Shown here piece by piece: positions 2,289-41,681 of a stretch of DNA of 64,000 nt (positions are counted from its first letter, which is position 1; the number at the start of each line of letters is the position of its first letter). The stretch is taken from assembly GCA_963720045.1 (NCBI GenBank), contig CAVREC010000002.1, positions 69,361-133,360 on the forward strand, written 5' to 3'. The DNA is from an uncultured Actinomycetota bacterium. GTDB taxonomy: Bacteria; Actinomycetota; Thermoleophilia; Gaiellales; Gaiellaceae. Below the pieces are notes generated by a model that was not told where the DNA came from, did no database searches, and worked only from the letters and a program-made list of their open reading frames with translations. A program made the position numbers and the translations under genes.

Positions 2289-2475
2289 TCCATCGCCTCC
2301 TTGGTGGCGTATCCGTGCGGAGCGTAAGGGTTACCCAGATCCCGTGTGGACAACGCAAGGATCGTGTCAGGGGGAGGTTAGGCTCGGCTCGCGCGAAGCG
2401 CGAAATCGGGCTAAGCTCGGGCGTAATGGTCGAGGCGGTGGGCTCATCCCAGACGAACGCGGAAGACACGCCACC

Positions 2476-5400
2476 TTGGCGCTGATCCTCAAGCGCGTCG
2501 GCCGCTACGAGCTGCTGAGGGAGGTCGGGCGCGGTGGAATGGCGACCGTCTACCTGGCGCGCCAGACCGACCTCGACCGCCATGTCGCGCTCAAGGAGCT
2601 CGCGAGCCTCCATTCCGCCGACGAGGCCTTCGCGGAGCGCTTCCTGCGCGAGTCGCGGATGGCGGGATCGCTGAGCCATCCGAACATCGTCACCGTCCAC
2701 GACTACTTCGAGCACGAGGGGACGCCCTACATCTCGATGGAGTACATCGCGCGCGGTTCGCTGCGCCCGCTCGTCGGCCACCTCACCCTGGCGCAGATCG
2801 GCGGTGTGCTCGAGGGTTTGCTCGCAGGCCTCCAGCACGCGGCGAGCCGCGGGATCGTCCACCGTGACATGAAGCCGGAGAACGTGATGGTCACCGGCGA
2901 GGGCGGCGTGAAGATCTCGGACTTCGGGATCGGCCGAGCGCTCAACCAGGCCGGAAACGCCTCGAAATTCCTGACCGCGACCGGAACCGCGATCGGCACG
3001 CCCGCCTACATGGCGCCGGAGCAGGCGATGGCGAAGGAGGTCGGGCCCTGGACGGATCTCTACTCGCTCGGGATCATGGCCTACGAGATGGTGCTCGGCG
3101 AGGTTCCGTTCGCCGACTCCGAGACGCCGATGTCGATGCTCGTCCGGCACGTCAGCGAGACCGTCCCGGCGCCCTCGTCGATCGACCCGTCGATCGACCC
3201 ACAGCTCGGCGAGTGGCTCGAATGGCTCCTGAACAAGGATCCGAAGGACCGGCCGCCGAGCGCCAGCGACGCCTGGGACAAGCTCGAGGAGATCATCATC
3301 CATCTGCTCGGCCCGCGCTGGCGGCGCGAGGCCCGCCTCGGCGACGGCGAAGGTGAGCCGCACGCCGACGAGGACGCAAAGCCGCTCACGCCGGCGCCCT
3401 TCTCGGAGGAGCGCTCGAAGGTTTCGCTCGGGACGCCTCAACCCGAGTATGTGACGGTCGACCCGGGAGCGACTGACGCAGCTGCGGCGGCGGCCGCAGC
3501 GGGCGCCGCGGCGGCAGCGGCGGCGACGCCTTCGCTCGATGCTCCCGCCCCCGCCGCGCCTGGGCCCGCTGCGCCCGTGGAAGTCGAACCCTCCGTTCCG
3601 GTTGCCGAGGACCCGCCCGCGCCGGTGCCTGCTGCCGAAGCGCCGGCCCCGCCGGAGCCCGCGGTCGACGAGCCGGCCGCCGACGAGCCGGCCGCTCCCG
3701 AGGCGGCCAAGCCGGCAGCCGAGAAGCCTCCTTCCGCAGCCGATACCCCGGCGACGCCCGGAGGCTCGCTCGACCTGGGCGACGAGGAAGAGGACATGTA
3801 CCTCACCTTTGCGCCCGGCGCAAAGAAAGCCGTCGTTCCCCCGCCGGCCCCGGTTCCGGTCGCCGAGGCACCCGCCGCCCCGCCTGCGGCGCCCGCTGCG
3901 CCTGCGCCGCTTGAGCCGCCCGCGCCTGCCCCGGTTGCCGAAACCCCGGCCCCGGCCCCGCCGAGCCCTGCACCGGTCGAGACGCCTGCTCCGCCTGCTC
4001 CGGAGGCCGCTCCGCCGGTTCCCGTGGCGGCCGAGGCGCCACCGCCTGCTCCCGCTCCCCCTGTGGCCCCCGAACCGATCGCGCCGGACTCCGAGCCGGA
4101 ACCCGACCACGACCATTCGGCCGCTGCCGCCGCGGCGACCGGTGCCGTCGCCGGTGCCGCCGCAGCCGCTGCCGCAGCCAGTCCGAAGCCGAAACGCGGG
4201 CTCGGGAGGCTGAAGAAGCCGAACGTCCCGAAGCTGCCGAACATGCCGAACATCCCGAACCTGCCTCCGGAGGTCCAGCAGTTCGCGCCGGGTATCGCCG
4301 GCGAGATCGGCGGGGCAAACGCGGAGCTTGCGGCGGTGCCCCAGGAGATGCAGATCCCCTCGGCGGGCCAGGAGTTCAACGAGGCGATGCCGGATGTCGC
4401 CGGGCACGTCGCCGAGGCGCAGGCGGTCGTCGGCGACACGCCGGGGACGCCGAGCATCCCGACCCCCCATGTCTCGCACACGAGGGAGCCGGTCGCGCCC
4501 GCAGCGGCAGCCGCTGCCGCGACGCCGGAGGCGCCCGCCCCCGAGGTGCACGAGAAGAAGCACCGAGGGGCGAAGATTGCCGGGGCGGCTGCGGGCGCTG
4601 CCGTTGCCGGCGCCGCCGCGGCCGCCGCTGCTCCGGCTGCCTCCGCAGCTGCCCCGCCGGCAGCTTCACCACCTGCCGCGCCGCCAGAGCCGCCGCCTCC
4701 ACCTCCGCCCGAGAAGCCGCCGTCCTCCACGCCGCTTGCGCCGGATCTTCTCGTCACGGCCCCGCCGGACAGGGCGCCGAAGGCCGTCGAGCATCCGAGC
4801 TTCGTCCTCACCGACGCGGTCAAGGCGCTCGACCAGGAAAAGGAGACGAAGACCACGATCAAGCCGCTCTGGATCCTCGTCGCCCTCGGCCTCGTGGCGG
4901 TCGTGGTCGTCGCGGTGATCGTGCTCGCGGGTGGCGGGAGCAGCGGGAAGAAGGCGGCGACGACCTCGACGACCACTCCGACCACGACAGGCCGGACGTC
5001 GACGACCACTCAGACGACCACCCCCACGACTCCCGTCATCGCCGAGGTTCCGCCCACGGCGATCCAGCAGCAGTCGATCGCCGGTGCCGGCGGCGGATCG
5101 GTCGTCGTCGCCTCGCCGGGCGGTGCGATCGAGCGCCTCTCGGGTGCGACGCTCAAGCCGCAGGCCTCGACCACCGATCCGGGAAGGCCCACCTCGATCA
5201 GCCAGAGCTACGGCCGCGTCTTCGTGACCGACAACGGCACGATCGCGACGTACAAGCTCAACGACCTGAGCCCGATCGACGCGGTCAGCCTCCCGGGGGC
5301 CTACGCCCTTGCCGGCGGCGGCGCCAACCTCCCGCTCTATGCCCTCTCGCGGCGCGGCGTCGACGGCGGCCAGATCTGCACGGTCACCCCGCAGGCCGTC

Positions 5401-6513
5401 TCGCCGTGCGTGACGGTTCCGTTCGCCCCCTCGGGCGGCGGGGTTCACCGGATCAGCTCGGGTAAGAGCGTCGTCTATCTCACCGATCGCGCTTCGGCGA
5501 GCGTCGTTCCCTACACGGCGACGAAGACCGCCCTCACTCCGGGCACACCGATCAAGCTGCCGGCGCAGCCTCAGGGCGATCCGGTCGCGATCGGCAAGAC
5601 GCTCTACGTTCCTGTCCGCCGAGGGATCGCCGTGATCGACACGACCACCGGCAAGGTCATCTCGACGATCGCCCTTCCCGTCTCGCCGCTCTCCCTCGTC
5701 GCCAATGGCAAGAAGCAGCTCTTCGCTGCGCTCTTCTCCACGAATCAGGTCGCCGCGCTGACGCTCACCAAGCCCGGCGCGACCCCCGCGATCAAGCTCA
5801 TCAAGGTGCAGAAAGGCCCGGTCGCGCTCGCGGACTCCGGCGGCTCGGTCTACGTCGTCAACGGTGCCACAGACAGCGCGCAGAAGATCAACCCGGCGAC
5901 GCTCACGGTGACGAGCGTCTCGAAGCTCCCGTCGCTCGGGTCGAACACGCCGCCGATCACCGCGCTGGCCCCGAAGATCGTCGCGAACGGGCGCACCGTC
6001 ACCGTCACCGTGCCGCTCCACGGCGGGACGCTTCCGTCGTCAGGCCTCGTGGTCTCCAGCACGAAGATCTCGGGCGGGCATGCTGCCGCCACGCTCTGGC
6101 AGGGCGGGATCAAGACGAAGGGCGGCACGAAGAGCGCACAAGGCGTCTCGGTCACGACGAGCTCACATCCGGGGCGTGTCGATGTCGTCCTGCACACTCG
6201 TGCCGGCGATTTCGAGAAGGTCGTCGTAGCCCGCGCCGGAGACGGCCGTGCGGTGAGCTTCACCCTGACTGAGCCGCCTCCGCCTCCGCCTCCGACGACG
6301 CCGACGACGACGCCGACGACGACGCCGACGACGACGCCGACCACGACGCCGCACGACGACGCCGACGACGACGCCGACGACGACGCCGACCACGACGCCG
6401 ACGACGACGCCGACCACGACGCCCACGACGACGCCCACGACGACGCCGACCACGACGCCGACGCACACCACGACGCCAACGTCGACCGGGATCACCATCG
6501 GCTAGTCGAATGA
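2476..6513 (+). CDS. Hanks-type Ser/Thr protein kinase, single TM, extracytoplasmic beta-propeller-like domain
   Basis: Kinase motifs GRGGMATVYLA..VALK, HRDMKPEN, SDFG and YMAPEQ. These are followed by a long Pro/Ala linker and the TM helix LWILVALGLVAVVVVAVIVLAGG. Then come a Ser/Thr linker, repeated strand-rich segments (YVTN/propeller-like) and a PTTT repeat tail. The start is uncertain: TTG 2476 is chosen just before the kinase domain, while the track ORF starts at 2344. Confidence 0.85.
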   Translation: MALILKRVGRYELLREVGRGGMATVYLARQTDLDRHVALKELASLHSADEAFAERFLRESRMAGSLSHPNIVTVHDYFEHEGTPYISMEYIARGSLRPLVGHLTLAQIGGVLEGLLAGLQHAASRGIVHRDMKPENVMVTGEGGVKISDFGIGRALNQAGNASKFLTATGTAIGTPAYMAPEQAMAKEVGPWTDLYSLGIMAYEMVLGEVPFADSETPMSMLVRHVSETVPAPSSIDPSIDPQLGEWLEWLLNKDPKDRPPSASDAWDKLEEIIIHLLGPRWRREARLGDGEGEPHADEDAKPLTPAPFSEERSKVSLGTPQPEYVTVDPGATDAAAAAAAAGAAAAAAATPSLDAPAPAAPGPAAPVEVEPSVPVAEDPPAPVPAAEAPAPPEPAVDEPAADEPAAPEAAKPAAEKPPSAADTPATPGGSLDLGDEEEDMYLTFAPGAKKAVVPPPAPVPVAEAPAAPPAAPAAPAPLEPPAPAPVAETPAPAPPSPAPVETPAPPAPEAAPPVPVAAEAPPPAPAPPVAPEPIAPDSEPEPDHDHSAAAAAATGAVAGAAAAAAAASPKPKRGLGRLKKPNVPKLPNMPNIPNLPPEVQQFAPGIAGEIGGANAELAAVPQEMQIPSAGQEFNEAMPDVAGHVAEAQAVVGDTPGTPSIPTPHVSHTREPVAPAAAAAAATPEAPAPEVHEKKHRGAKIAGAAAGAAVAGAAAAAAAPAASAAAPPAASPPAAPPEPPPPPPPEKPPSSTPLAPDLLVTAPPDRAPKAVEHPSFVLTDAVKALDQEKETKTTIKPLWILVALGLVAVVVVAVIVLAGGGSSGKKAATTSTTTPTTTGRTSTTTQTTTPTTPVIAEVPPTAIQQQSIAGAGGGSVVVASPGGAIERLSGATLKPQASTTDPGRPTSISQSYGRVFVTDNGTIATYKLNDLSPIDAVSLPGAYALAGGGANLPLYALSRRGVDGGQICTVTPQAVSPCVTVPFAPSGGGVHRISSGKSVVYLTDRASASVVPYTATKTALTPGTPIKLPAQPQGDPVAIGKTLYVPVRRGIAVIDTTTGKVISTIALPVSPLSLVANGKKQLFAALFSTNQVAALTLTKPGATPAIKLIKVQKGPVALADSGGSVYVVNGATDSAQKINPATLTVTSVSKLPSLGSNTPPITALAPKIVANGRTVTVTVPLHGGTLPSSGLVVSSTKISGGHAAATLWQGGIKTKGGTKSAQGVSVTTSSHPGRVDVVLHTRAGDFEKVVVARAGDGRAVSFTLTEPPPPPPPTTPTTTPTTTPTTTPTTTPHDDADDDADDDADHDADDDADHDAHDDAHDDADHDADAHHDANVDRDHHRLVE
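6274..6480 (+). repeat. coding 12-nt tandem repeat (ccgacgacgacg, PTTT) with an internal frame switch
   Basis: Direct reading: the P7(TTPT)n tract changes to HDDADDDADH.. after an extra c in ccgcacgacgacg near 6350. In the other frame the PTTT repeat would continue to a TAG at about 6502. Confidence 0.8.
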
Positions 6514-6546: not shown

Positions 6547-9285
6547 TTACGCGTTCGGGTCGGGAACAGCCGGCAGGACCTGCACCGTGCTCCCGGTTCC
6601 GCCGCCCGGCTCCGGGGGCGGCGTGCCCGAACCGCCGCCCGAAACCGCGTCGAAGAGACCGCTGTTGCCGGTGCCCTGCTGAGCCGGCTCCGGGGTCGGT
6701 GACCCCGGGGTCGGTGCTGCGGGCGGCTCGACCGGAGGCGCCGCGCCCGCACCGGGCGGCTCGGGGGTGCCGCTTGCAAGGCCTGTGACGTCGCTTCCGC
6801 CTGCGAACTGCTCCTTGTAATACGGCTCGTCGAGGCTCGAGATCTTCACCACGTCGCCTGTGTGCGGGGCGTGGAGGAACATGTGGTTCCCGATGTACAG
6901 GCCCTCGTGGTGCACGTAGCCGGTCGAGTCCTTGAAGAAGACGATGTCGCCCGGCTTGAGGTCGTTCACGTTCGAGATGTGCTCGCCGACGTTGAACTGG
7001 TCGGCCGCGACGCGCGGGACGTGGATCCCGAGTTGGCCGTAGCTGTACTCCACGAGGCCCGAGCAGTCGAAGCCGGTCTGCGGCGTGTCGCCGCCCCAGT
7101 GATACGGCGTGCCGATGTATTTCTCCGCGATCGTCAGCGCCTGGACACCGGCCGCCGAGCCTCCGGCCGCGGCGCCCGTCGCGCCCTGGAGCGCTTCCGC
7201 TGCGGCAGCCGCGTCGGGCCCCGCGGTGCCTCCGGCTCCCGCCCCGCCCGGCCCACCTGCCGAAAGGAGGCTGTCGGCCTGGTCGAGGTGGGTCTGGTAG
7301 CGGCCGCGGTACTCGGCGGCGGGCTGCTCGACGTCCGCGACCCAGTCGCCCCACTTGCTCTTGTCCTGGCCGTAGCTCGCATCGCCCTGTGAGAGGCGTT
7401 CGCGCCGGACCTCGAGCGCCTGGTTGATGAACCACTTGAGCTGGAGCTCCGGGTGGTCGGAGAAGCCCTTGTACTCGCCCTGGTTCCAGATGCTCGTCCG
7501 CATCTGGAAGAAGCCGAGCGAGTCGCGGTCGCCGTAGTTGTCGTTCTTCAGGCCCGACTCGGTGAGCGCCGCCATGATCGGCAGCTCGGCCGGCAGCCCC
7601 GCCTTGTGTGCCTGCCGCGCCATCCACGCAGCGATCGCCTGCTGGGAGGCGTTGTCGCCGGGATAGGTGTCGCTCGCATCGGGCAGCCCGCCCGCCGCGT
7701 TCGGGTCGAATCCCTGGAGCGCCGACTCCGCGGCGGCTCCGCCGTGACCCGTGGCGGGCACCTCGAACTGGAAGGTCGAGTGACCCTCGCGGCCCTGCAC
7801 CGCTCCGATGACCATGCTCTGGTGCGTCGGCGGGGGTGGTGGCGCGCCGGGTGTCGTCACGGGCGTCACGGGCTCCGGCGGCGAGGTGGTCGGGGCGGCC
7901 GGCGGGGTGGTCGTGGGATCGGGCGGTGCGCCTCCGCCGGCGGGCGGCGTCGTCGGCGTGGGTGGAGGCGTCGTCGGCGCGGCGGGGGGAGTCGTCGTCG
8001 GATCCGGAGGCGGCGTCGAGGGCGCGGCCGGCGGGGTCGTTGCCGGATCGGGTGGCGTCCCGCCGGAAGGGGGCGTGGTCGCCGGGTCGGCCGGAGGCGT
8101 CGAACCGCCCTGTGGCTCTGGTGGCGTGGGCAACGGGGTGGGCGGCGGCGTCGTCGGCGCGGCCGGCGGCGTCGTGGTCGGGTCGGGTGGTGGTGTGGAG
8201 GGTGCGGCCGGCGGCGTCGTGGTCGGGTCGGGTGGTGGTGTGGAGGGCGCGGCCGGCGGCGTCGTGGTCGGGTCGGGTGGTGGTGTGGAGGGTGCGGCGG
8301 GCGGCGTCGTGGTCGGGTCGGGTGGTGGTGTGGAGGGCGCGGCCGGCGGCGTGGTGCTCGAATCCGGCGGCGTCGTGCCCGGCTCGGGCGGCGTCGTGCC
8401 CGGGGAAGGCGGCGTCGTTCCGGTGTCCGGCGTCGTCGAGGTGTCGACGGGGTCGTTCGTCCCGGCGACCATGTGCGTGGCCGGGGCCGAGGACGAGGGA
8501 GCGTCGAAGATGAGGTGGATCCGGTCGTCGTGGCCGCCGCCCTGCGTGAAGCCGTGCGCCTCGATCGGCCACGGTGTCACGATCTGCGCCGGCCGCAAGG
8601 ACGGGTCGAGCGAGGCGAGCTCGTTGGCCAGGTCGCGTGCGTAGATGTTCGACTGCGACACCCGCTCGCCGTCGACCGAGAGGATGTCGAACGAATCGCC
8701 TCCCGCCCCGTGGCTCACCTGGAGCGCCCCGATCTGGAGCTGGTGCTGCTTCGTCAGGTCGTCGAGCACCGACACGAGCCGAGCGTCGGCGCCGCCCCGT
8801 GCGAGGGCTGCGTGTGCCTCCGGCGAGAAGGTCAGGTGCGTGTTGTGAAGCAGGGTCGTGATGTCCGACGAGCTCGCGAGATGGGCCGATGAGCCCGAGC
8901 CCGCCAGATGGTCGGTGACGCCCGAGCCGTGGAGGTTGTCGGGATCGATCGCGTGCAGCTTCGGGCTCGTGAGCGCGTGATGGACGACCCGGTGGGCCTG
9001 GCCGTGAAGGTGGTTGTCATGGAGGTTCTTGAGGTGGTCGACGGCTCCGGTCCCCTCGGACGCGGCGGCCATGAACGCACCGGCGAGGCTCGAGCGGGAC
9101 TCGCGGATCTCGAGCGTGTGGAACATGCTCGCCGTGGAACCGCCGCCGAACTCGGTCGCGAGCTCCGGGAGGTCGAACTGCTCGCACGCGCTCGCCGGAT
9201 CGTGCCGGAAGCTCGCGCGGAACTCGTCGTCGGTCAGAAGCTTCTCGAGCAGCTCCGCAGCGCGTGCTTCGTCAGACGACTGCAC
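6547..9285 (-). CDS. multidomain cell-wall hydrolase: lytic-transglycosylase-like region plus NlpC/P60 endopeptidase; no signal peptide
   Basis: NlpC/P60 signature YIGTPYHWGGDTPQTGFDCSGLVEYSYGQLGIHVPR...GDIVFF...HHEGLYIG. SLT-like segment LPIMAALTESGLKN...DSLGFFQMRTSIW. Long TTPPAAPSTPPPDP repeats. The N-terminus MQSSDEARAAELLEKLLTDDEFRASF is hydrophilic. The start overlaps the upstream gene end by 14 nt. Confidence 0.85.
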   Translation of the reverse strand: MQSSDEARAAELLEKLLTDDEFRASFRHDPASACEQFDLPELATEFGGGSTASMFHTLEIRESRSSLAGAFMAAASEGTGAVDHLKNLHDNHLHGQAHRVVHHALTSPKLHAIDPDNLHGSGVTDHLAGSGSSAHLASSSDITTLLHNTHLTFSPEAHAALARGGADARLVSVLDDLTKQHQLQIGALQVSHGAGGDSFDILSVDGERVSQSNIYARDLANELASLDPSLRPAQIVTPWPIEAHGFTQGGGHDDRIHLIFDAPSSSAPATHMVAGTNDPVDTSTTPDTGTTPPSPGTTPPEPGTTPPDSSTTPPAAPSTPPPDPTTTPPAAPSTPPPDPTTTPPAAPSTPPPDPTTTPPAAPSTPPPDPTTTPPAAPTTPPPTPLPTPPEPQGGSTPPADPATTPPSGGTPPDPATTPPAAPSTPPPDPTTTPPAAPTTPPPTPTTPPAGGGAPPDPTTTPPAAPTTSPPEPVTPVTTPGAPPPPPTHQSMVIGAVQGREGHSTFQFEVPATGHGGAAAESALQGFDPNAAGGLPDASDTYPGDNASQQAIAAWMARQAHKAGLPAELPIMAALTESGLKNDNYGDRDSLGFFQMRTSIWNQGEYKGFSDHPELQLKWFINQALEVRRERLSQGDASYGQDKSKWGDWVADVEQPAAEYRGRYQTHLDQADSLLSAGGPGGAGAGGTAGPDAAAAAEALQGATGAAAGGSAAGVQALTIAEKYIGTPYHWGGDTPQTGFDCSGLVEYSYGQLGIHVPRVAADQFNVGEHISNVNDLKPGDIVFFKDSTGYVHHEGLYIGNHMFLHAPHTGDVVKISSLDEPYYKEQFAGGSDVTGLASGTPEPPGAGAAPPVEPPAAPTPGSPTPEPAQQGTGNSGLFDAVSGGGSGTPPPEPGGGTGSTVQVLPAVPDPNA
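8150..8345 (-). repeat. near-perfect 45-bp coding tandem repeat (TTTPPAAPSTPPPDP, about 4 copies) within a wider Pro/Thr tract (about 7860..8440)
   Basis: Direct reading of lines 8161-8340: the unit ggccggcggcgtcgtggtcgggtcgggtggtggtgtggagggygc recurs with 45-nt period. Confidence 0.85.
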
Positions 9286-10912
9286 CTTCGACTCCTGCCT
9301 CCCGGTCGCTTCGGCGTGCCGAGTACGCCTTCCAGAATACTGCCAGGATCGGGACGAGCATCAGGATGTAGAAGGCGATCAGCACCGCCCAGACGAGGCT
9401 CGCCGGGGCGATCGCGGTCATGTAGCCGTAGTAGCGCTGCGACATCACGACCGTGAACGCGGCGGTTGCGAGCGACCAGACGAGCGCGGTCACCGCGTAG
9501 GTGGCGAGCACGCCCGCGTCGTCGGGCTCCGCTTCCCGCCCGGAGAGGCGGTTCGAGAGCCATTCGCGCGAGCGGCGGCGCAGCCCGGGCTCGCGCATCA
9601 GGTCGACGAGGATGTGGTAGCCGTCGCGGTCGAGCAGCGGGTTCAGGTTGAAGATCGCGCCCGTGTAGGCGGCGAGGGCGAGCTGGAACCAGACGTCCTG
9701 CAGCGTCCCCGGCGACGAGAAGACGGCGAGGAGCGCGGCGGCGCCGGCGATCGTGAGGTCGCTGATCGGGCCCGCGGCGCTGATCGCGATCCGCCGGCGC
9801 GCCGGCTCGAACCACGCCTCCGAGGTGTCCACGTAGGCGTACGGGAAGATCAGCATCAGCTTGATCCCGGCCTTCGGAACCTTCCGGCCGAACGACTCGA
9901 CGGTCAGCCCGTGGGCGAACTCGTGCACGATCACGACGAGGAAGCGCCCGACGAGGAACACGATCCCTCCGACTCCGACCTTGCCCGCGACCACGAACGG
10001 GGCCACGGTGCCGCTGCCGATCAGGTCCGCGAACGCGACGATCCCGGCAGCCGAGATCAACGCGAACGCGATCAGCGGGGGCCGAGTGAAGAGCAGGAAG
10101 CCGCCGGCGCGATAGACCTTCGTGAAGACCGGGCCGAGCCAGGTGAAGTCCCACTGGCGCATCCGGAAGAGACGGGCAAGCTTCTTCTTCGAAGGCGGCG
10201 CCTTCGCCTCCTCGACCCCCTCGAGCAGGCCCCGCTCGCCGAGGTCTGCCAGCATCGAGGCGAGCTTGCTCGGGCCGTCGGCGCCGAAGCGCCCTGTCGC
10301 GGCCACGATCAGGCTCGACAGCGAGTTCTCGCCGTTCAGCAGCCCGAGCAGGTTTGCGTCCTCGGCGCTCAGCCGCACGAAACGGCCGTCGGGGCCGCGC
10401 AGGACGAAGCGGAGGTCGCCCTCGTCCGCGGCCAGCCGCTTCAGCTTCGAGCCGGCGCGCAGGCGGGGGAAACGGAGCGCGGCACCGTCCTCGTCGGGCA
10501 GGCCGGGGATCGCGCCGAAGACGACCGTGCGGCCGCTCTCCGACTCGTTGCGCTTTGCCTCGATCGTCAGTTGCACGTCGCCGAGCCCGAGCTTCGAGCC
10601 GTCGCGGAGCAGCGTCCGGCCGGTGATCTGCTGCCCGTCGACGAACGTGCCGTACGTCGAGCCGGCGTCCTCGACCGCCGGCCCGTCCGGGTCGATCACG
10701 ATCCGCGCGTGGTTACGGGAGACCGTCTCGCCCTGGATCCGGATCAGGTTCTCGCTGCCGCGGCCGAGCGTCAGCGGGCCGTAGACGAGCGGGATCCGGC
10801 GCCCGTCGCCGATGACGAGCTCGAGCGGCGCGCGGCCCTTGACGGGCGTGCCGCAGACGGTGCAGACGTCGTCGTCGCGTGCGATCTGGCATCGGCAGCT
10901 TCGGCAGAGCAT
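9272..10912 (-). CDS. zinc-ribbon + FHA domain + polytopic M50 (site-2-protease-like) metalloprotease
   Basis: ATG at 10912 lies 1 nt after the stop of the upstream gene (10914). Zinc ribbon CRSCRCQIARDDDVCTVCG. FHA signature LTLGRGSEN..VSRNHARIV..DAGSTYGTFVDG. Several TM segments. HEFAH (HExxH) and NLNPLLDRDGYH (NxxPxxxxDG) motifs. Confidence 0.8.
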   Translation of the reverse strand: MLCRSCRCQIARDDDVCTVCGTPVKGRAPLELVIGDGRRIPLVYGPLTLGRGSENLIRIQGETVSRNHARIVIDPDGPAVEDAGSTYGTFVDGQQITGRTLLRDGSKLGLGDVQLTIEAKRNESESGRTVVFGAIPGLPDEDGAALRFPRLRAGSKLKRLAADEGDLRFVLRGPDGRFVRLSAEDANLLGLLNGENSLSSLIVAATGRFGADGPSKLASMLADLGERGLLEGVEEAKAPPSKKKLARLFRMRQWDFTWLGPVFTKVYRAGGFLLFTRPPLIAFALISAAGIVAFADLIGSGTVAPFVVAGKVGVGGIVFLVGRFLVVIVHEFAHGLTVESFGRKVPKAGIKLMLIFPYAYVDTSEAWFEPARRRIAISAAGPISDLTIAGAAALLAVFSSPGTLQDVWFQLALAAYTGAIFNLNPLLDRDGYHILVDLMREPGLRRRSREWLSNRLSGREAEPDDAGVLATYAVTALVWSLATAAFTVVMSQRYYGYMTAIAPASLVWAVLIAFYILMLVPILAVFWKAYSARRSDREAGVEGAVV

Positions 10913-10913
10913 C

Positions 10914-13874
10914 TCACGGGGGTGTGACGTATTGCCAGGACGGGTTCTGGGCCCCGGAGGCGCGGAGCTGGGTGACCGTGCCCGCCGAGGCGAGCTGCAG
11001 CCGGGCGAGCGCGCCGAGGGCATTCGAGCATGCGTTGTCGGCCTGCGTGACGATCACCTCGCCGCCGTCGGCGCGCCACGTGACCTCGCAGGCGCGAACC
11101 GTCGGGGTGACGGGTTTCGGCGTGCCGAGCTGGCCGCTCGACCACGTGGCCGTGTAGAGCCGGAAGACCTGGTTGTTCGTCCAGTTGGCGACGAGCGCGA
11201 CCTGCGTCCCGTCGGGCGAGAACGCGGCGTAGATCACGGCGTCGCTGCCTTTCGAGCCGTGCATCTTGTCGGTGACGAGGCCCTGCCACACCCAGTCGCT
11301 CGGGCTCGAGGAGAACGGGCGGGCGGTCGTGTACTCGCCGAGCTCGATCTGGTTCTTGTCCTTCGGGTCGTGTGCGACGACGAGGATCGCCCGCCCGTCG
11401 GGCGACCAGGCCGGGCGGTCGACGTCGAACGCCGGGTCCTTGATGCACGCGCCCTGATGGAGGGTCGAGGCCGTGCGGACGAAGCAGAGGTCGCCGTCGG
11501 TACCCGTCGAGGTCTTGCGAATGAACGCGATCACCTTGCCGTCCGGGGAGAACGCGGGTCTGCGGTCGTTCGGGCCCGCCGTGATCGCCCGCGCGCTCGT
11601 CGCGCCCTTCGAGGTGTCGACCATCCAGACCTTTCCCGCGTTCGCGTTCCCCGCCGGGCCGCGGCGGAAGGCGACGAGATGGCCGTTCGGCTGCCAGCTC
11701 GGCTCGTCCTCGGCATCGCCCGACGCCGCGATCTTCTTCGCGGCGGCGCCGTTGACCGCGCTCATCGTGTAGATCGAGGAGCCGTCGGAGAAGGCGACCG
11801 GAGGCAGGCCGGCGGAGATGATCAGCTGGACGGTCGCGCCCTTCGTCACCGTCGCCGGGTTCGTGCCGACGACCGTCCCGGGCTTCGCAGCGTCGAACTG
11901 CTGGCTCGTGACCGCCGTCGCACCCGCGGCTTTCACCGCCGCGGCCGCAGCGGCAGCGCTCTGCCCGGCGAGGGCGCCGCCGGCGACGGGCGTCGGCGTC
12001 GTCGTCTTTGTCCCGCCGGTCGTGGGCGGCACGACCTTCGGCGGATTGACGTAGATCGTCACCGCCGAGCCGGCCTTCTCCCTCGATTGCGCCGTCGGAA
12101 CCTGGAGCGAGATCTTCGCGGTCGTCGGGTTCACGGTCGAGGGAATCGGGTTCAGGACCGGCGCCAGTCCGGCGCCCTTGATCAGGGCCGAGGCCTGCGC
12201 GATCCCCTGGCCGACGACGTTCGGCACGGTGCGGAGGCCGCTGCCGACCGCGACGACGATCGTGATCGTCGTCCCTTCCGCGACCGGCGTCTTCGCGGCC
12301 GGGCTCTGGGTGATGATCGTGCCGATCTTCTTCTTCGCCCGCGAGGCGAGCTCGGGCTTGGCGGGACCGAGCACGAGCTTCAATCCGGGCAGTACTTTCT
12401 GGGCCTGCGCCTGGGTGGCGCCCACGAGGTTCGGGACACGCGGCTCGGCGACGAAGAACGTGACGGTCTTCCCGGTCTTGATCCTGTTTGCGGTGAAGTG
12501 GCCGTTCTGGACGGGCCCCTTGTGCCAGCTCGGGTTCTGCCTGACCACATGGAGGTAGGCGACCGTCTTCGAGGGCACCTCGCCGGGCGGCTGCGAAGCC
12601 GGCTTCAGGTTTGCCTTCTGGATCGCGAGCTGGGCTGCTGCGATCGTCATCCCGTGCAGATCCGGCACCGTCGTCTTGTGCGGGATCAGCGAATAGAGCA
12701 GTACCGCCGCCGCGATCAGGGCCGGGATCACGATCGGCACCCAGAAGGGGATCCACGGCTTCTGGCGGAAGGTGCCCTGAAGCGGCCTCGCGGTGGACTC
12801 GCCGACAGCCCCCTTCGCCGTGACCTCGAAGCGGCGCTCGATGATGCGTCCGACCCAGTGGTTGTGTTTCGGCTTGACGGTGAACTTCGTTCCGTCTCGC
12901 CGCCCGGGCTCGGCGACGAAGCGCGGCTTCTCGAAGTTGAAGTTGAGCGCGTTCTGGTTGTCGACCGCGGTGATCTCGGTGTCGAGCGGGGCGTTCGCCT
13001 TGTTCCGCACCATCACCGCGTACTCTCCGCGCCGCCGGCCGACGACGATCTCGGGCCGCAGCTCGCTCTCGATCTGCTCGTACGGGGTGATCTCGACCTT
13101 GCCCGCGGTCAGGCCGGTCACCTCGTTCTGGGCACGCGAGAGGGCGATCACCTCGATCTCCCAGATCCGCGCCTCGGCCTCGGCGCTGCGCGGCGGGCTG
13201 AAGTTGATGTGGACGTCCTGCTCGTAGGTGCCGCTCGGTGCGCCGAACGGGACGAGGTAGACCGACGGGGGCGTGACGTTCCACCACTCCTCGGGCATCC
13301 CCTTCACCTGGATCTCGTAGTTGTCGACGATGCCGCTCTGGTTGCGGACGAGCGCAGGCAGCGGGACGTGGCCGCCGGCCTCGACGACGAGTTTCTGCTC
13401 TTTGCCGGGAAGCTCCGGGTAGTTCAGCGTGATCTGCACCGCCTCCGTGACAAGGAGCGGCGCGACGCCCGGGATGTTCGGGGCATTCGGATCGCCCGCA
13501 CGGATCACGGGCATGTCCATCGTGCGCATCACCGGCACGGGAATCTCGACCGCGTGCTGTTCCTCGGGCGGCGCTGCGGGCGGTTCGGGCGGCGCTGCGG
13601 GCGGTGCGGAAGCCGCCGGCGGCGGAGCGGCTGCGGGTGGCGGGGCGGTGGCGGCAGCCGCACCTGCCGCTGCTGCCGGCACTACCTCGGCCGGAGCGGG
13701 CTCTTCAGGAGGAGGTGCGACCGGCGCAGGCTCGGCCGGCGCAGCGGGCGCTTCGGCCTCGGGCAGCTTGACGGCGGGCTGGAGCCGTGTCGGGTCCCAG
13801 CGCAGGTAGGTGCCGCAGTTGACGCAGAAGTCGACGTCGTCGTTCTCGTGCGCGCACTTCGGACAAGGGGCCAT
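10914..13874 (-). CDS. bitopic membrane protein: N-terminal zinc ribbon and Ig-like cytoplasmic region, one TM, 3-4 PASTA domains, TolB-like beta-propeller
   Basis: Zinc ribbon CPKCAHENDDVDFCVNCG, then a Pro/Ala linker and the TM helix WIPFWVPIVIPALIAAAVLLYSLI. PASTA-like units (TVPDLHGMTIAAAQLAI.., RVPNLVGATQAQAQKVL.., RTVPNVVGQGIAQASALI..). Repeated FSPDG/WSPDG propeller motifs (RPAFSPDGKVIAF, RPAWSPDGRAILV, AAFSPDGTQVALV). Confidence 0.8.
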   Translation of the reverse strand: MAPCPKCAHENDDVDFCVNCGTYLRWDPTRLQPAVKLPEAEAPAAPAEPAPVAPPPEEPAPAEVVPAAAAGAAAATAPPPAAAPPPAASAPPAAPPEPPAAPPEEQHAVEIPVPVMRTMDMPVIRAGDPNAPNIPGVAPLLVTEAVQITLNYPELPGKEQKLVVEAGGHVPLPALVRNQSGIVDNYEIQVKGMPEEWWNVTPPSVYLVPFGAPSGTYEQDVHINFSPPRSAEAEARIWEIEVIALSRAQNEVTGLTAGKVEITPYEQIESELRPEIVVGRRRGEYAVMVRNKANAPLDTEITAVDNQNALNFNFEKPRFVAEPGRRDGTKFTVKPKHNHWVGRIIERRFEVTAKGAVGESTARPLQGTFRQKPWIPFWVPIVIPALIAAAVLLYSLIPHKTTVPDLHGMTIAAAQLAIQKANLKPASQPPGEVPSKTVAYLHVVRQNPSWHKGPVQNGHFTANRIKTGKTVTFFVAEPRVPNLVGATQAQAQKVLPGLKLVLGPAKPELASRAKKKIGTIITQSPAAKTPVAEGTTITIVVAVGSGLRTVPNVVGQGIAQASALIKGAGLAPVLNPIPSTVNPTTAKISLQVPTAQSREKAGSAVTIYVNPPKVVPPTTGGTKTTTPTPVAGGALAGQSAAAAAAAVKAAGATAVTSQQFDAAKPGTVVGTNPATVTKGATVQLIISAGLPPVAFSDGSSIYTMSAVNGAAAKKIAASGDAEDEPSWQPNGHLVAFRRGPAGNANAGKVWMVDTSKGATSARAITAGPNDRRPAFSPDGKVIAFIRKTSTGTDGDLCFVRTASTLHQGACIKDPAFDVDRPAWSPDGRAILVVAHDPKDKNQIELGEYTTARPFSSSPSDWVWQGLVTDKMHGSKGSDAVIYAAFSPDGTQVALVANWTNNQVFRLYTATWSSGQLGTPKPVTPTVRACEVTWRADGGEVIVTQADNACSNALGALARLQLASAGTVTQLRASGAQNPSWQYVTPP

Positions 13875-13888
13875 GAGTCAGCGAGCCA

Positions 13889-14542
13889 TCAGTCAGCGGG
13901 CGGCGGCGGCTTTTTCGCAGCTTTGACGCGCAGTCTGTAGGTCACATGCACCGGTTTTGTCTCCTCGATCACCCGCGCGATCGCGAGCTGGGTCTTTTCG
14001 GGAATCGGAGTGTCGCAGTAGACCACAAAGCTCGGTGGGGGAGCCTTCGTTCGTGTCTCAGGATTTGTCGACCACGTGACCCCGCCGCCGTCTTCGACCC
14101 GGAGCGGGATCTTCGGGAACGCGATCGAAAGCGCGAGCGTGAGGCCCGCTTTCGTCCCGCGCTGCCGCGAGAGCTCTCCTTCGCGGCTGAGCGCCTCGCG
14201 GAGCCGGTCGTCGGGCCAGCCTTCCTCGACGTTCAGGCCGAGCCACGAGGCGAGCAGGTCGAGCACGTCGCGCGGGGCGAGCGTCGGATGGAAGTAGAGC
14301 GAGAGCACGTCGAGCGTGCCCACGATCGGATCGAGCGCCGTCTCGAGCGCGCCCAGGAAGCGCAGGCCGAAATCTCCGTCCTGGTAGATGCTCGGCATGT
14401 TGTTGCGCAGGTAGCCGCGCATCGAGACGACCTCGGGCGCCTTTCCGGCCGAAAGCCGCGCCCGGAGGTTCGTCGTCGAGAAGCCACGGCGCGTCGTGAC
14501 CCCGTGCGCGAGCGAGGTGCCCTGAACGGTCGACGGGCTCAA
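13889..14542 (-). CDS. baseplate protein, phage tail protein I-like (P2 gpI / Afp12 position)
   Basis: Characteristic MPSIYQDGDFGLRFLGALETALDPIVGTLDVLSLYFHPTLAPRDVLDLLASWLGL. The start overlaps the upstream stop (14539..14542). An internal start at MRGYL is possible. Confidence 0.7.
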   Translation of the reverse strand: MSPSTVQGTSLAHGVTTRRGFSTTNLRARLSAGKAPEVVSMRGYLRNNMPSIYQDGDFGLRFLGALETALDPIVGTLDVLSLYFHPTLAPRDVLDLLASWLGLNVEEGWPDDRLREALSREGELSRQRGTKAGLTLALSIAFPKIPLRVEDGGGVTWSTNPETRTKAPPPSFVVYCDTPIPEKTQLAIARVIEETKPVHVTYRLRVKAAKKPPPPAD

Positions 14543-16545
14543 ATCTCTGCCCGCTCGGCCTTGATGATGTGCGTGCCGGACGCGATCACTTCGTCCTCGC
14601 CGATCTCGATGTAGCTGCCGGCCGGTTTCGGATCCTGCTTGCCGCTGGCAAGGTCGGTCTCGTAGACGCGGAGGATCTTGATGAACTCGACGCCCTCGAT
14701 CTTGCGGACGATCCCGTAGAGCTCACCCTGATTCAGCGAGCGCCCGAACTCCCAGCCCTCGCCGAGGCCGTCGGTCGAGCCGCCGACGAGTGGGTTCAGG
14801 TAGCTGTAGAGGGCGTAGCCGACGTCCTGCTCGACGCGCTCGAGGTCGGCGTTGATCGAGGCCTGGAGGTTCACGACGACGCTGACGCCGTGCAGCTTCA
14901 CCGGCAGCAGCTCGAGGCTCATCCCGATCACGCGCCGCTCGTCGAGGTACTCGGCGACCTCGGTCAGGAGCGCTTCGTCGGGCGACAGCTCGTCGACGCT
15001 GAGCTGACGGTCGGCGGGAGCGACCATCGGCAGGATGTGGACGCGCACCATCCCGTCCTCGCCCGGCGGCAGGCACACGGCGCGGGCGACCCGGGGCGAG
15101 GCCTCGCCGCAGAGGAACTCGAAGTCGTCCGGGGTGACGGCCCGGTAGCGCGTCCGGATCTCGAGCGCAGCCCTGTTCCTCGCGCTTTCCAGCGATTCCG
15201 GGTCGACTCCGCCGAACGCGGGCCGGAGGTTCGTCACCGTGTCCACGCCCGGGATCGCGCTCTTCAGCACCGACAGCGTGCCGCTGGAGACGTTCCCCTG
15301 GCGGCCACCGCCATGCCGGTACCGGGTGAAGCGGAGCGTCGCATCCTTCTTCGGGACGCCGCCGTACTGCTGCCAGTTGCCGTCGGGCGTGCGGATCGCC
15401 GGGCCGAACTCGAGCTGTCCCGCCGCGGCGTTCAGGACGTAATGCCGGGAAGTCGGCTTGCTCTCGACGAAGGACTCCACCTGATCCCAGCGCTCCCACG
15501 TCCCTGAGTCGGGGTCGAGCACCTCGAGGAACTCCTCGGGCGTCGGGTCGAGGATCGGGTAGTAGCGGAGCTCGAAGACCTGCCCCGGCGTCCCGTCGCT
15601 CGCGCCGACGATCTCCTCGTTCACGCGCTCGGAATGGGCGGCGGGGATGATCGCTCCGATCGGGGCCGCCGTGATCCCATGGATCTCCGGCGGATGGGAG
15701 TAGGTGGCCCCGCCGCTCGCGCCCGAGCGCGTCTTCGAGTCGAGCCGGCAGCAGACCCAGTAGGCGCGGTGGCCCGCGATCGGGACGGCGGTGTGCTCGG
15801 CGGGAAGCTGGATCGTCACCTTCCCGGACCCGTAGTTGAAGCCTCCGGTCAGGTCCTCGACCACCTCGGCCTCGAGCCACCCCGTCTCCTCCTCGGCGAC
15901 CGAGACCTCCCAGCGAAGCGGCGGATCCTCGGGATCGACGCCGGCGCCGCGGGCCTGGGAGCAGTCCACGTCGACCTCGAGCAGGATGTTCGCGAGCGGG
16001 ACGTCGAAGCCGAGGTAGAGGGCATCGCCGGCCTTCGGCGGGGTGCCGAAAGCGTTCTGGTCCGGCCCCTTCGGCTTCGCGACACCGTTCGCGACGCCGA
16101 TGTCCTTGACTGCGCCGCCCCGCTTGACCGCGTAGAAGCCCGGCCGCGCCGGGGGGATCGTGAAGTCCTGGGAGGTCTGGAAGACGATCGCCGCCTCGTT
16201 CGCGGTTCGGATCGTCCCGACCTCGGTCTCGCCGGCGGGGATCTCGACCGGCTCGGTGGGCGGTGCGGTGAGCTTGAAGCGAAGATGCGTCGTCGCGGCG
16301 ACCGGCGGCTCCAGCTCGATCCCGAGCAAGTTCAAGAGCGTCACATGCAGCTTCTCGGGAACGCGGTTCAGCCGGTAGATGATCGTCTCGGTCAGCCAGG
16401 CGAACAGCTCGACGAGCGTGATCCCCGGGTCGGAGACGTTGTGCTCCGACCATTCGGGACAGCGTTGCGAGAGCCGCTGGCGAGCCTCGTTCACGAGGTC
16501 CTGGAAGCCGCGGTCGTCGAGGGTGACCTCGGGGATCCGGCTCAT
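14539..16545 (-). CDS. baseplate J-like protein (Afp11 / gp6-like wedge)
   Basis: ATG at 16545 shares one nt with the gp25 stop (TGATG). The N-terminus IPEVTLDDRGFQDLVNEARQRLSQRCPEWSEHNVSDPGITLVELFAWL is typical of CIS baseplate assembly proteins. About 668 aa, the 3' part of track ORF 14539..18495. Confidence 0.85.
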   Translation of the reverse strand: MSRIPEVTLDDRGFQDLVNEARQRLSQRCPEWSEHNVSDPGITLVELFAWLTETIIYRLNRVPEKLHVTLLNLLGIELEPPVAATTHLRFKLTAPPTEPVEIPAGETEVGTIRTANEAAIVFQTSQDFTIPPARPGFYAVKRGGAVKDIGVANGVAKPKGPDQNAFGTPPKAGDALYLGFDVPLANILLEVDVDCSQARGAGVDPEDPPLRWEVSVAEEETGWLEAEVVEDLTGGFNYGSGKVTIQLPAEHTAVPIAGHRAYWVCCRLDSKTRSGASGGATYSHPPEIHGITAAPIGAIIPAAHSERVNEEIVGASDGTPGQVFELRYYPILDPTPEEFLEVLDPDSGTWERWDQVESFVESKPTSRHYVLNAAAGQLEFGPAIRTPDGNWQQYGGVPKKDATLRFTRYRHGGGRQGNVSSGTLSVLKSAIPGVDTVTNLRPAFGGVDPESLESARNRAALEIRTRYRAVTPDDFEFLCGEASPRVARAVCLPPGEDGMVRVHILPMVAPADRQLSVDELSPDEALLTEVAEYLDERRVIGMSLELLPVKLHGVSVVVNLQASINADLERVEQDVGYALYSYLNPLVGGSTDGLGEGWEFGRSLNQGELYGIVRKIEGVEFIKILRVYETDLASGKQDPKPAGSYIEIGEDEVIASGTHIIKAERAEI

Positions 16546-16952: not shown

Positions 16953-16970
16953 CTACCCCTTCCTGGTCTG

Positions 16971-18626: not shown

Positions 18627-18651
18627 GGCACCGTTGTTGTCTCGGAGCGGC

Positions 18652-19347: not shown

Positions 19348-19349
19348 GG

Positions 19350-19829: not shown

Positions 19830-19844
19830 CGTCTCTCCTTGCTG

Positions 19845-22559: not shown

Positions 22560-22564
22560 GTGCG

Positions 22565-23097: not shown

Positions 23098-23125
23098 GTG
23101 ACCTCCTCAACCCCCTCGTTGCTCG

Positions 23126-23566: not shown

Positions 23567-23588
23567 TTAGCTCCTCCTCTCTTTGTGT

Positions 23589-25136: not shown

Positions 25137-25152
25137 CTCACTCCCTTCCTTC

Positions 25153-41674: not shown

Positions 41675-41681
41675 AGCGGCG

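Follow-up and report, generated by a model that had tools for sequence, protein, structure and literature searches.

The subject of this analysis is a 64,000-nucleotide stretch of DNA from an uncultured actinobacterium of the family Gaiellaceae (contig CAVREC010000002.1 of assembly GCA_963720045.1, positions 69,361 to 133,360), referred to below as the window, and in particular the last gene of the contractile injection system (CIS) operon that it carries. This gene encodes a 912-aa peptidoglycan hydrolase, which an earlier note made from the sequence had described as leaderless and had regarded as either a loaded effector of the particle or an autolysin. The hydrolase was found to begin with a conserved leader, and its gene to follow immediately upon that of a membrane-embedded M50 metalloprotease with a forkhead-associated (FHA) domain. 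The arrangement of leader and M50 protease suggests a previously undescribed, signal-gated release of wall-cutting enzymes. The features of the hydrolase gene and of its partner are the following, all coordinates being those of the window:

6547-9285, reverse strand: gene of the 912-aa hydrolase, which acts on peptidoglycan, has several domains and is tagged with a leader; start codon GTG, stop codon at 6547-6549
9292-9296, reverse strand: AGGAG Shine-Dalgarno-like box, 6 nt 5' of the GTG and within the 3' end of the FHA-M50 gene, read from the sequence
9118-9285, reverse strand: helical NHLP-type leader, aa 1-56, consensus LLERLLxDPxFRxxFRRDPxxAC..GL..LA
9088-9117, reverse strand: T-L-E-I-R-E-S-R-S-S motif, aa 57-66, predicted to be disordered (predicted local distance difference test, pLDDT, below 50 at residues 56-64)
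9013-9087, reverse strand: short hydrophobic/amphipathic helix (LAGAFMAAAS-EG), aa 67-91, an AlphaFold helix over 67-91
8872-9012, reverse strand: His/Ser-rich linker, aa 92-138, recognised by sequence and partly disordered (pLDDT below 50 at residues 117-130)
8503-8871, reverse strand: LAS/MepA-like domain (peptidase MD clan), aa 139-261, from AlphaFold (pLDDT 86-98) and Foldseek
7687-8502, reverse strand: Pro/Thr-rich spacer, aa 262-533, with 15-aa repeats PPAAPSTPPPDPTTT (45-nt tandem repeats at 7936-8360)
7252-7686, reverse strand: lysozyme-like/lytic-transglycosylase-like domain, aa 534-678, from AlphaFold and Foldseek, absent from Pfam
6802-7113, reverse strand: NlpC/P60 cysteine endopeptidase domain, aa 725-828, Pfam PF00877 (peptidase C40), bit score 97.5 with a cutoff of 23 (E 5.2e-28)
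6547-6801, reverse strand: Pro/Gly-rich C-terminal tail, aa 829-912, including the stop codon, with two recurrent short motifs
9272-10912, reverse strand: Zn-ribbon, FHA and polytopic M50/S2P-like metalloprotease (Pfam FHA, Peptidase_M50, DUF3267)

Long spurious open reading frames (ORFs) are frequent in a window of about 70% GC. Such an origin was ruled out for the hydrolase by the GC of its codon positions 1, 2 and 3 (0.69/0.60/0.88, typical of genuine genes in this window), by its Pfam matches and by conserved homologs, which are 88-93% identical over the C-terminal half and 87% identical over the N-terminal part. The protein itself is not on record in an exact-sequence lookup. Upstream, the frame is closed by an in-frame TGA at 9361-9363 on the reverse strand, and the 25 codons between it and 9285 contain no ATG, GTG or TTG; an N-terminal extension with a signal peptide is thus impossible, and the alternative upstream start that the earlier note had considered is excluded. 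The genes that close the operon at its 3' end are tightly spaced, with gaps of 14, 1 and -14 nt in the order Tail_P2_I, PASTA-PD40, FHA-M50 and hydrolase. The FHA-M50 stop codon at 9272-9274 produces the 14-nt overlap already noticed from the sequence; the hydrolase, which has a good ribosome-binding site of its own, is coupled in translation to the CIS operon. It is the last gene on its strand, 3' of the baseplate genes; as first proposed, it closes the operon, being preceded by Pfam-confirmed CIS genes of the same strand and followed by a convergent kinase gene, whose stop codon lies 33 nt from its own.

The nearest database proteins are only 410-480 aa long, which raised the suspicion that the hydrolase gene is a fusion of two genes. 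This was ruled out: on the contig of the closest relative among metagenome-assembled genomes (L001/L006), a different frame codes for the N-terminal part with 85% identity, and distant homologs have leader and hydrolase domains in a single ORF. In this relative the hydrolase gene (8400-11343) is frame-shifted within the Pro/Thr repeats, and gene callers yield only a 436-aa C-terminal fragment together with spurious antisense ORFs. Many of the short 'leader' proteins in databases look like similar artefacts of assembly or gene calling.

Residues 7-42 of the hydrolase match NCBIfam TIGR04509, 'NHLP-related RiPP peptide' (RiPP: ribosomally synthesised and post-translationally modified peptide), with 36.4 bits against a cutoff of 34, a model on which homolog P0053 falls slightly short with 31.2 bits. 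The leader also matches NCBIfam NF038399. AlphaFold places helices over residues 3-56, with a block-mean pLDDT of 80-95 over residues 1-50 and of about 48 over residues 51-60. The N-terminus had earlier been described as a hydrophilic helical region; the helices are borne out by the prediction, and the region is a conserved module of a targeting type (TIGR04509) rather than a random helix. The related idea, that the N-terminus is a functional handle, agrees with the conservation of a leader module of about 90 residues. The motif that follows the helices has the family form T-L-[ED]-[LIV]-R-E-S-[RK]-S-S. Its T57 is conserved in 97 of 98 sequences although it lies outside the DNA pattern used for retrieval; among the profile-retrieved representatives it is threonine in 56 of 56, and position +3 is L, I, V or M in 48 of 56 (86%). 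A common FHA recognition pattern is pT-x-x-[I/L/V], and residues 57-66 are a candidate docking site for FHA through phospho-Thr, or a candidate protease recognition site.

Beyond this motif, a run of exactly 10 uncharged residues (LAGxxMAAAx) is present in 98 of 98 sequences and is followed by a near-invariant E77-G78. Over this stretch the 19-residue Kyte-Doolittle hydropathy has a family mean of 1.40, the target being lowest with 0.76, and the summed Hessa-type cost of insertion, about +7, is unlike that of a transmembrane segment. In the whole 912-aa protein no 19-residue Kyte-Doolittle window reaches 1.6 (best 1.03), and neither a twin-arginine motif nor a lipobox was seen by eye near the N-terminus. 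Export signals were thus assessed by crude hydropathy scales, predicted helices and inspection by eye. So judged, the protein lacks a Sec, Tat or lipoprotein signal, in agreement with the earlier note, and residues 1 to about 90 are an NHLP-type leader and not, by hydropathy, a Sec-type signal or a transmembrane helix.

Several other identities of this region were considered. A conventional transmembrane anchor was ruled out by the hydropathy of the 10-residue stretch. As regards a double-glycine site cleaved by a peptidase-containing ABC transporter (PCAT), the target does have GGG at residues 47-49, but the family as a whole does not conserve Gly-Gly, and this candidate was rejected. A true RiPP precursor was ruled out by the size of 912 aa, by the folded enzyme domains and by the finding of no maturase or PCAT gene among the neighbours scanned. 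Finally, a relationship to the T7SS_signal domain of type VII secretion systems (T7SS) was ruled out by an hhalign probability of 0.2% against a neighbouring T7SS_signal domain, and the Pfam scan of the hydrolase gave no WXG100, LXG or T7SS_signal match.

The leader is not confined to the window. An exhaustive HMMER scan of 1.84 billion representative proteins returned only 443 leader clusters with E<=0.001. Of the 150 top-ranking hits that were listed, whose lengths reach 1445 aa, just four have a leader that begins later than about residue 40, and these four look like over-extended gene calls. Short matches are fragments, publicly labelled 'NHLP-related RiPP peptide' or 'putative modified peptide'; the former label is misleading, because the core behind the leader is a large folded multi-enzyme protein. 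All 76 genome loci with a leader gene belong to Thermoleophilia-type actinobacteria (Solirubrobacterales, Gaiellaceae, Thermoleophilaceae and Miltoncostaeaceae), and a carrier in culture is Solirubrobacter phytolaccae KCTC 29190 (L028). A search of 2.9 million viral contigs (IMG/VR) yielded no homolog of the leader; a phage origin was ruled out on this ground, and the leader thus does not belong to a phage lysis-cassette family.

With respect to cargo, Pfam recognised NlpC/P60 in 26, M23 in 11 and CHAP in 4 of 63 long leader representatives, and no nuclease or other non-wall toxin or enzymatic domain was among the Pfam matches of these proteins. The Frankia_peptide match seen in 19 of the 63 is the leader itself. 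Purpose-built hidden Markov models (HMMs) detected a lysozyme-like domain in 41 of these representatives and a LAS-like domain in 48, so that 60 have at least one of the two and 3 have neither. Some members are very large; that of L038 is a 1947-aa protein with two intact LAS domains, one CHAP, one NlpC/P60 and four lysozyme-like domains. Leader cargo varies in arrangement, but every domain recognised in it is directed at the wall, which points to an extracytoplasmic, wall-directed destination.

From N- to C-terminus, the hydrolase consists of a degenerate LAS-like, a lysozyme/transglycosylase-like and an NlpC/P60 domain on long Pro/Thr and Gly/Ala linkers. The earlier note had described a bifunctional enzyme with an NlpC/P60 and a lytic-transglycosylase-like part. 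The NlpC/P60 domain is firmly established by PF00877, which is the sole domain that Pfam recognises in the protein, and by an intact triad of C741 (DCSGL), H793 (VHHEG) and H805 (FLHAP). These three residues occupy columns conserved in at least 90% of 52 aligned homologs, and their spacing matches that of C68-H119-H131 in E. coli Spr/MepS. When the family profile was searched against the Protein Data Bank (PDB), dozens of solved NlpC/P60 structures were retrieved, the best being the diffocin hub-hydrolase CD1368 (8v3w, E 3.5e-40), and no SLT structure was found at E<=1.

The transglycosylase-like part is supported at the level of fold and motif only. This segment contains TESGL at 575-579 (E576-S577) and GFFQM at 591-595, and it matches no Pfam model at E<=10 (SLT, PF01464, included) and no NCBIfam transglycosylase model at E<=0.1. 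AlphaFold modelled residues 534-678 from a 52-sequence alignment with a pLDDT of 92.4, and nearly all Foldseek matches in the PDB are lytic transglycosylases or lysozymes (g-type and others), among them phiKZ gp144, MltE, MltF, MltC and Slt, with weak scores (E 0.03-1, TM-score about 0.45-0.55). E576 is conserved in at least 90% of the 52 homologs, S577 is invariant and GFFQM is conserved. Given the absence of profile matches, the weak Foldseek scores and the conservation of E576 and S577, the segment is treated here as a divergent, as yet unclassified lysozyme-like domain.

Apart from the leader family, the earlier list of domains had overlooked the LAS/MepA-like domain at residues 139-261, whose top Foldseek match is E. 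coli MepA (E 0.011, probability 1.0). Intact LAS-like copies in homologs match Pfam Extensin-like_C (PF06904) of the same clan. The target has an 11-residue deletion; its SHGAGGDSFDI gives H-x7-D instead of H-x6-D, and R-I-H stands in place of H-x-H. With both the H-x6-D and the H-x-H motif disrupted, the domain is probably a catalytically degenerate, non-catalytic relic. Both motifs are also missing in 24 of 49 family copies, and the close homolog P0122 is without both LAS histidines. The Pro/Thr spacer of the earlier list was recovered as 45-nt repeats, for which Tandem Repeats Finder reported a period of 45, 4.6 copies and 95% identity at 8156-8360.

Two short motifs stand in the C-terminal tail, SGLFDAV (aa 875-881, nt 6643-6663) and STVQVLPAV (aa 899-907, nt 6565-6591). 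TVQ[VIF]LPAV-type motifs were found in 19 of 59 long family members and SGLFGAV-type motifs in 10 of 59, compared with 0 and 0.2 in shuffled sequences. They recur in linkers as well as in C-terminal tails, the linkers of L038, L014, L053 and L063 included, and they may serve in sorting, in binding to the wall or as a processing site.

Turning to the partner, the longest FHA-M50 ORF (9272-11023, 583 aa) overlaps the PASTA-PD40 gene by 110 nt. The true start is likely M38, an ATG at 10912 that lies 1 nt past the PASTA-PD40 stop, in agreement with the 546-aa call for the homolog in the relative L001. In the numbering of the 583-aa ORF, HEFAH begins at residue 367; the protein also has NLNPLLDRDG and multiple hydrophobic segments. 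In NCBIfam it matches the daptide intramembrane metalloprotease (E 1.7e-35) and also the YydH/LiaK protease. Its 54 homologs conserve HExxH, the S2P-type NxxPxxxDRDG and the GR and SRxH residues of the FHA domain, and by its residues the protease looks functional. M50 proteases that remove leaders, for example EpeP, are documented (PMC10885120).

The pairing of the two genes was examined in both directions. In the forward direction, an FHA-M50 gene lies directly 5' of the first leader gene in 59 of the 76 genome loci. Among these 59, PASTA-PD40 was found in 55, Tail_P2_I in 51, VgrG and gp25 within 10 kb in 31 and a kinase within 10 kb in 35, and 20 of them have two or three leader genes in tandem. 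For the reverse direction, 80 metagenome loci were retrieved by the M50 domain alone, 75 of which had room downstream; a leader ORF starts -7 to +43 nt from the M50 stop in 72 of these 75. The pairing of M50 and leader genes is near-obligate in both directions, as for a substrate and its protease.

Upstream of this pair, on the same strand, lies the CIS itself, and beyond the hydrolase the convergent kinase:

2344-6513, forward strand: Hanks-type Ser/Thr kinase, 1389 aa, convergent (Pfam Pkinase, E 3e-50)
10914-13874, reverse strand: PASTA-PD40 protein, a 986-aa bitopic membrane protein (Pfam and transmembrane prediction)
13889-26583, reverse strand: CIS structural block (Pfam and ORF map)
13889-14542, reverse strand: Tail_P2_I (Pfam)
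between Tail_P2_I and gp25, reverse strand: 576-aa gpJ-like ORF (ORF map)
16545-16952, reverse strand: gp25 (Pfam)
16971-18626, reverse strand: VgrG-like spike (Pfam)
between the VgrG-like spike and the second gp19 tube, reverse strand: 266-aa ORF (ORF map)
19350-19829, reverse strand: second gp19-like tube (Pfam)
19845-22559, reverse strand: 904-aa low-complexity ORF between the tube genes, with a GC of 0.78 at 20001-22000, the most GC-rich part of the window
beside the 904-aa ORF, reverse strand: small ORFs of the CIS block (ORF map)
23126-23566, reverse strand: gp19 tube (Pfam)
23589-25136, reverse strand: sheath (Pfam)
between the sheath and the Pvc16_N cap, reverse strand: 139-aa ORF (ORF map)
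25690-26583, reverse strand: Pvc16_N cap (Pfam)
28749-30803, reverse strand: AAA+ ATPase with a winged-helix domain, in an Afp15/Pvc15-type position (Pfam AAA and WHD)

Of the cluster ORFs that were scanned, none is evidently a tail-fibre gene; the 576-, 266- and 904-aa ORFs are without assignment. The 904-aa ORF has no Pfam or NCBIfam match and may, by its position, be a tape-measure-like protein or a tape-measure-related effector. The PASTA-PD40 protein has a Zn-ribbon, a cytoplasmic region of about 380 aa, a transmembrane segment at aa 379-397 and, outside, four PASTA repeats and a PD40 propeller; it could be the membrane or wall anchor of the CIS, with a topology comparable to that of Streptomyces CisA. 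Its gene stands directly 3' of Tail_P2_I, the position expected for a tail fibre. The kinase has its kinase domain at aa 55-305, a transmembrane segment near aa 844-862 and a large extracellular region. Very long Ala/Pro-rich regions of low complexity also occur in it, and its C-terminus consists of two kinds of repeat, PTTT and D-[AH]-D-D, that arise from 12/18-nt tandem repeats (6400-6487).

The module was also encountered outside CIS loci. Among metagenome loci with sufficient upstream sequence, 10 of 29 were without a detectable PASTA-PD40 gene and 7 of 15 without Tail_P2_I. In four loci (L138, L149, L084 and L158) the FHA-M50 and leader-NlpC/P60 genes stand beside UPF0182, Na/Ca exchanger or sulfatase genes, and some 6.5 kb of upstream sequence is free of CIS genes; a Ser/Thr kinase is also present in L138 and L158. 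The pair in non-CIS loci implies a module that is able to stand alone or to act as a satellite. A further 10 of the 76 leader genome loci are T7SS-like, with an EssC-like FHA-FtsK ATPase, WXG100, a T7SS_signal protein, a small FHA protein and two B_lectin genes. These contain no CIS genes and no M50 domain, the M50 HMM finding FHA domains only. The paralogs linked to T7SS are those of L003/L058, L057, L061, L067-L069, L073, L075, L076 and L079, and copies linked to CIS and to T7SS coexist in single assemblies. A 618-aa gene 5' of a T7SS-linked homolog was considered as a diverged M50 gene and rejected; its product is secreted and repeat- or propeller-like, and the M50 HMM is negative. The T7SS_signal protein of these loci has a C-terminal NlpC/P60-variant domain, which shares 56% identity with the cargo of one CIS-linked leader protein (L027).

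Taken with the gene pairing, these observations lead us to favour, tentatively, a pro-hydrolase that is licensed by the FHA-M50 protease, with the leader as its handle and a docking step that is probably phospho-gated, and that is used together with the CIS against the cell wall; we consider this quite possible, if somewhat short of probable. The leader would recruit the cytoplasmically made hydrolase to the membrane-embedded FHA-M50 protease encoded just upstream. Docking would probably depend on phosphorylation, the neighbouring Ser/Thr kinase modifying T57 and the cytoplasmic FHA domain binding it; T57 as a phospho-switch is possible in view of its conservation and of the residue at +3. The protease would then clip the leader at or near the hydrophobic helix and so license the hydrolase for release. 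In the window, the module is built into the 3' end of an operon for a fibre-less CIS that is apparently membrane-anchored through the PASTA-PD40 protein. The licensed hydrolase would act along with CIS firing and cut peptidoglycan beyond the membrane, be it in the producer's wall where the tube is to pass or in the exposed wall of a neighbour.

A number of points weigh against this licensing model. Leader cleavage, phospho-gating, the export route and the CIS-linked role are what we infer, and cleavage, phosphorylation and export are drawn wholly from gene context and motifs. The hydrophobic stretch has only 10 residues and the target is the least hydrophobic member of the family, so that the hydrolase is not a canonical type-II transmembrane substrate of an S2P protease; a peripheral substrate of the pro-sigma-K kind is possible. 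The Asn of the FHA 'SxNG' motif is Tyr in the target, at a position that is not conserved among the 54 homologs. Furthermore, an M50 domain is missing from the 10 kb around 17 of the 76 leader genes, for which processing would need to act in trans or be dispensable, and the occurrence of the M50-leader module without CIS genes means that the link to the CIS may be lineage-specific. The 33-nt gap between the hydrolase and the kinase stop leaves no immunity-like gene after the hydrolase, and the model offers no route by which a folded 90-kDa protein would cross the membrane. A bolder version of the model would supply a route: a RiPP-style leader/M50 pair repurposed in Thermoleophilia, with a Ser/Thr kinase as sensor of the envelope, licensing of giant Sec-independent hydrolases gated by pT57 and their transfer to a membrane-anchored, fibre-less CIS (in the paralogs, a T7SS) that carries them across the membrane. 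This version, which would amount to a new logic of protein export and activation for monoderm bacteria, we regard as doubtful.

Among the other explanations, an endolysin-like autolysin survives best, although we hold it to be unlikely. Here the hydrolase would stay in the cytoplasm until the membrane is breached, by CIS firing or by a lesion, and would then cause lysis and death or release particles, leader and M50 protease serving to tether or restrain it. A hydrolase without an export signal fits this well, as do several potent lytic domains in one protein, which suit lysis. In Streptomyces, the CIS reside in the cytoplasm, bring about regulated cell death and require the bitopic membrane protein CisA (PMC12237407), and the bitopic PASTA-PD40 protein occupies a comparable place in the window. 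However, no holin-like small transmembrane protein is encoded adjacent to the hydrolase, the leader is absent from the 2.9 million viral contigs, and the versions in non-CIS and T7SS loci would need some other breach of the membrane.

The earlier note had put forward, as one option, an N-terminus that serves as a packaging signal, as in extracellular CIS (eCIS). The hydrolase would then be loaded in or on the tube with the aid of the AAA+ ATPase and expelled as an antibacterial payload, the M50 protease being uninvolved. In support of such cargo, an Afp15-type AAA+ gene is present, and toxins associated with eCIS share features of this kind, one of them being a peptidoglycan hydrolase (PMC8213781). 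Tandem arrays of two or three leader proteins are also in keeping with it, and the 56% identity between the cargo of a CIS-linked leader protein and the C-terminal domain of the T7SS_signal protein resembles the domain shuffling of toxins. Against it, the leader is associated much more closely with the M50 gene than with the CIS; the recognised domains are all wall hydrolases, and the repertoires of eCIS and polymorphic toxins are broad; and neither a DUF4157 match among the window proteins scanned nor an immunity gene was found. Since the leader is tied to FHA-M50 (59 of 76 and 72 of 75 loci) and also occurs in non-CIS and T7SS loci, an eCIS packaging signal is not the best reading of the N-terminus, and we consider it rather improbable.

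A signal-anchor combined with regulated intramembrane proteolysis was weighed as well. RESRSS and the hydrophobic helix would form an anchor inserted by Sec/YidC with the N-terminus inside and the C-terminus outside, and the M50 protease would free the exterior domains. S2P-family proteases such as RseP/RasP prefer substrates of this orientation with helix-breaking residues, and the invariant E-G could supply these. The two arginines just before the hydrophobic stretch fit the positive-inside rule, and a cytoplasmic FHA domain would be geometrically consistent with a juxtamembrane T57. It is the stretch itself that speaks against insertion: its uncharged run is exactly 10 residues in 98 of 98 sequences, and its hydropathy (1.40 in the family, 0.76 in the target) and insertion cost of about +7 are far from transmembrane-like, so that an anchor of this type would surprise us. 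A Gram-positive T7SS is known to use a dedicated wall hydrolase, EssH, and a leader that is an export tag for T7SS or another route, on a kinase-regulated general autolysin whose place in the CIS operon reflects co-regulation only, would agree with the 10 of 76 leader genes in T7SS-like loci, with single genomes that have both CIS-linked and T7SS-linked copies and with modules beside housekeeping genes, but it appears highly improbable because the leader shows no similarity to T7SS_signal (hhalign 0.2%) or, in Pfam, to WXG100/LXG, the window ORFs that were scanned yielded no T7SS gene, and most loci lie within CIS operons with tight gene spacing.

The proposed licensing of a leader-tagged hydrolase by its partner protease is best placed by comparison with described systems, and the feature combines known kinds, namely the effectors at the 3' end of eCIS operons, the pairs of leader and M50 protease, and regulated proteolysis. 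The nearest described analogues are the eCIS-associated toxins. These likewise stand at their operon's 3' end, have no classical signal peptide, possess very long linkers and are adjacent or fused to an HExxH metallopeptidase; one validated toxin is a peptidoglycan hydrolase, and GerE, BTAD and kinase regulators are found nearby in both cases (PMC8213781). In contrast to them, the present system has no DUF4157, a polytopic M50/S2P-type enzyme fused to FHA, an NHLP-type leader, a cargo of wall hydrolases only and a module that also occurs outside CIS loci.

Similarity to RiPP precursors and their leader peptidases (daptide, EpeP/YydH; PMC10885120) is seen in the TIGR04509 leader, the similar protease, the tight pairing and the tandem 'precursor' genes. 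The 'core', however, is a folded multi-enzyme protein of 500-1900 aa; there is no modification enzyme, double-glycine site or PCAT, and the protease carries an FHA domain. With regard to regulated proteolysis, FHA-M50 shares the HExxH and NxxPxxxxDG motifs of SpoIVFB and the S2P proteases. In the case of SpoIVFB and pro-sigma-K, an M50 protease removes a weakly hydrophobic N-terminal pro-sequence from a cytoplasmically made protein under signalling control. The difference is that the substrate here is a wall hydrolase and not a transcription factor, and that the proposed control is by FHA and kinase and not by BofA/SpoIVFA or by PDZ domains and a site-1 protease.

Diffocin CD1368, phage tail lysins and the hydrolase motifs of tape-measure proteins also associate NlpC/P60 with a contractile tail-like machine in a monoderm setting, but the protein studied here is a separate, leader-tagged product of the operon end and not a domain of hub, spike or tape measure. 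The high score of CD1368 reflects the general conservation of NlpC/P60 and not a specific relationship. As for signalling, the kinase-FHA pair PpkA-Fha1 gates the H1 type VI secretion system, a relative of the CIS. In C. difficile the PrkC kinase controls the export of the NlpC/P60 hydrolase CwlA (PMC8262956). The window resembles these cases in that a Hanks kinase equipped with an extracellular sensor is encoded next to an FHA protein and a contractile machine; with CwlA, the access of an NlpC/P60 hydrolase to the wall depends on a kinase. It differs in the fusion of FHA to the protease and in the putative phospho-site within the leader, CwlA having a normal signal peptide.

The Streptomyces CIS with CisA (PMC12237407) is comparable in being a fibre-less actinobacterial CIS with a clustered bitopic protein, N-terminal part cytoplasmic and C-terminal part extracytoplasmic. 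The PASTA-PD40 protein, by contrast, is not homologous to CisA as far as the two were compared. A term search of the CisA paper found no mention of a hydrolase or of FHA, M50 and leader not being among the terms searched for. In the open-access and bioRxiv literature, nothing relevant was found on Thermoleophilia CIS, on hydrolases with NHLP leaders or on FHA-fused site-2 proteases acting on hydrolases.

If the licensing model were true, it would show a RiPP-type pair of leader and protease at work on a full-size enzyme, and Ser/Thr signalling linked directly to intramembrane proteolysis through a fused FHA domain. It would also identify, for a monoderm CIS, either a wall-directed payload, which would be the first, or the factor that opens the wall. 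Wall hydrolases without a signal are a recurring puzzle in Gram-positive bacteria, and the same can be said of how actinobacterial CIS deal with a membrane and a thick wall. The three parts of the module, i.e., the kinase, the FHA-fused site-2-type protease and the leader-tagged hydrolase, are conserved across hundreds of sequences, are integrated into CIS operons and can be tested, with Solirubrobacter phytolaccae KCTC 29190 as an experimental entry point. In addition, the analysis corrects a systematic annotation error, by which fragments of these hydrolases are called 'NHLP-related RiPP peptide' or 'putative modified peptide'.

Some further observations concern the surroundings of the operon. 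GerE and BTAD regulators are typical neighbours of eCIS (PMC8213781). The regulators encoded near the CIS of the window (33810-34451, 36928-39969 and 39751-42032) comprise GerE, BTAD-AAA_16-TPR and GAF-SpoIIE-HATPase proteins, along with two STAS proteins that complete a partner-switching set. In NCBIfam, these regulators and the kinase gave only generic, sub-threshold similarity to TOMM kinase/cyclase proteins. Past the kinase, the window (412-1245, forward strand) and L001 (16559-17131) each have a gene with a CAP (cysteine-rich secretory protein) domain. Finally, the gene for an SBP_bac_5 solute-binding protein (51876-53416, reverse strand) is split into the overlapping ORFs 52451-53416 and 51876-52490, and this may reflect a frame-shift or a pseudogene.

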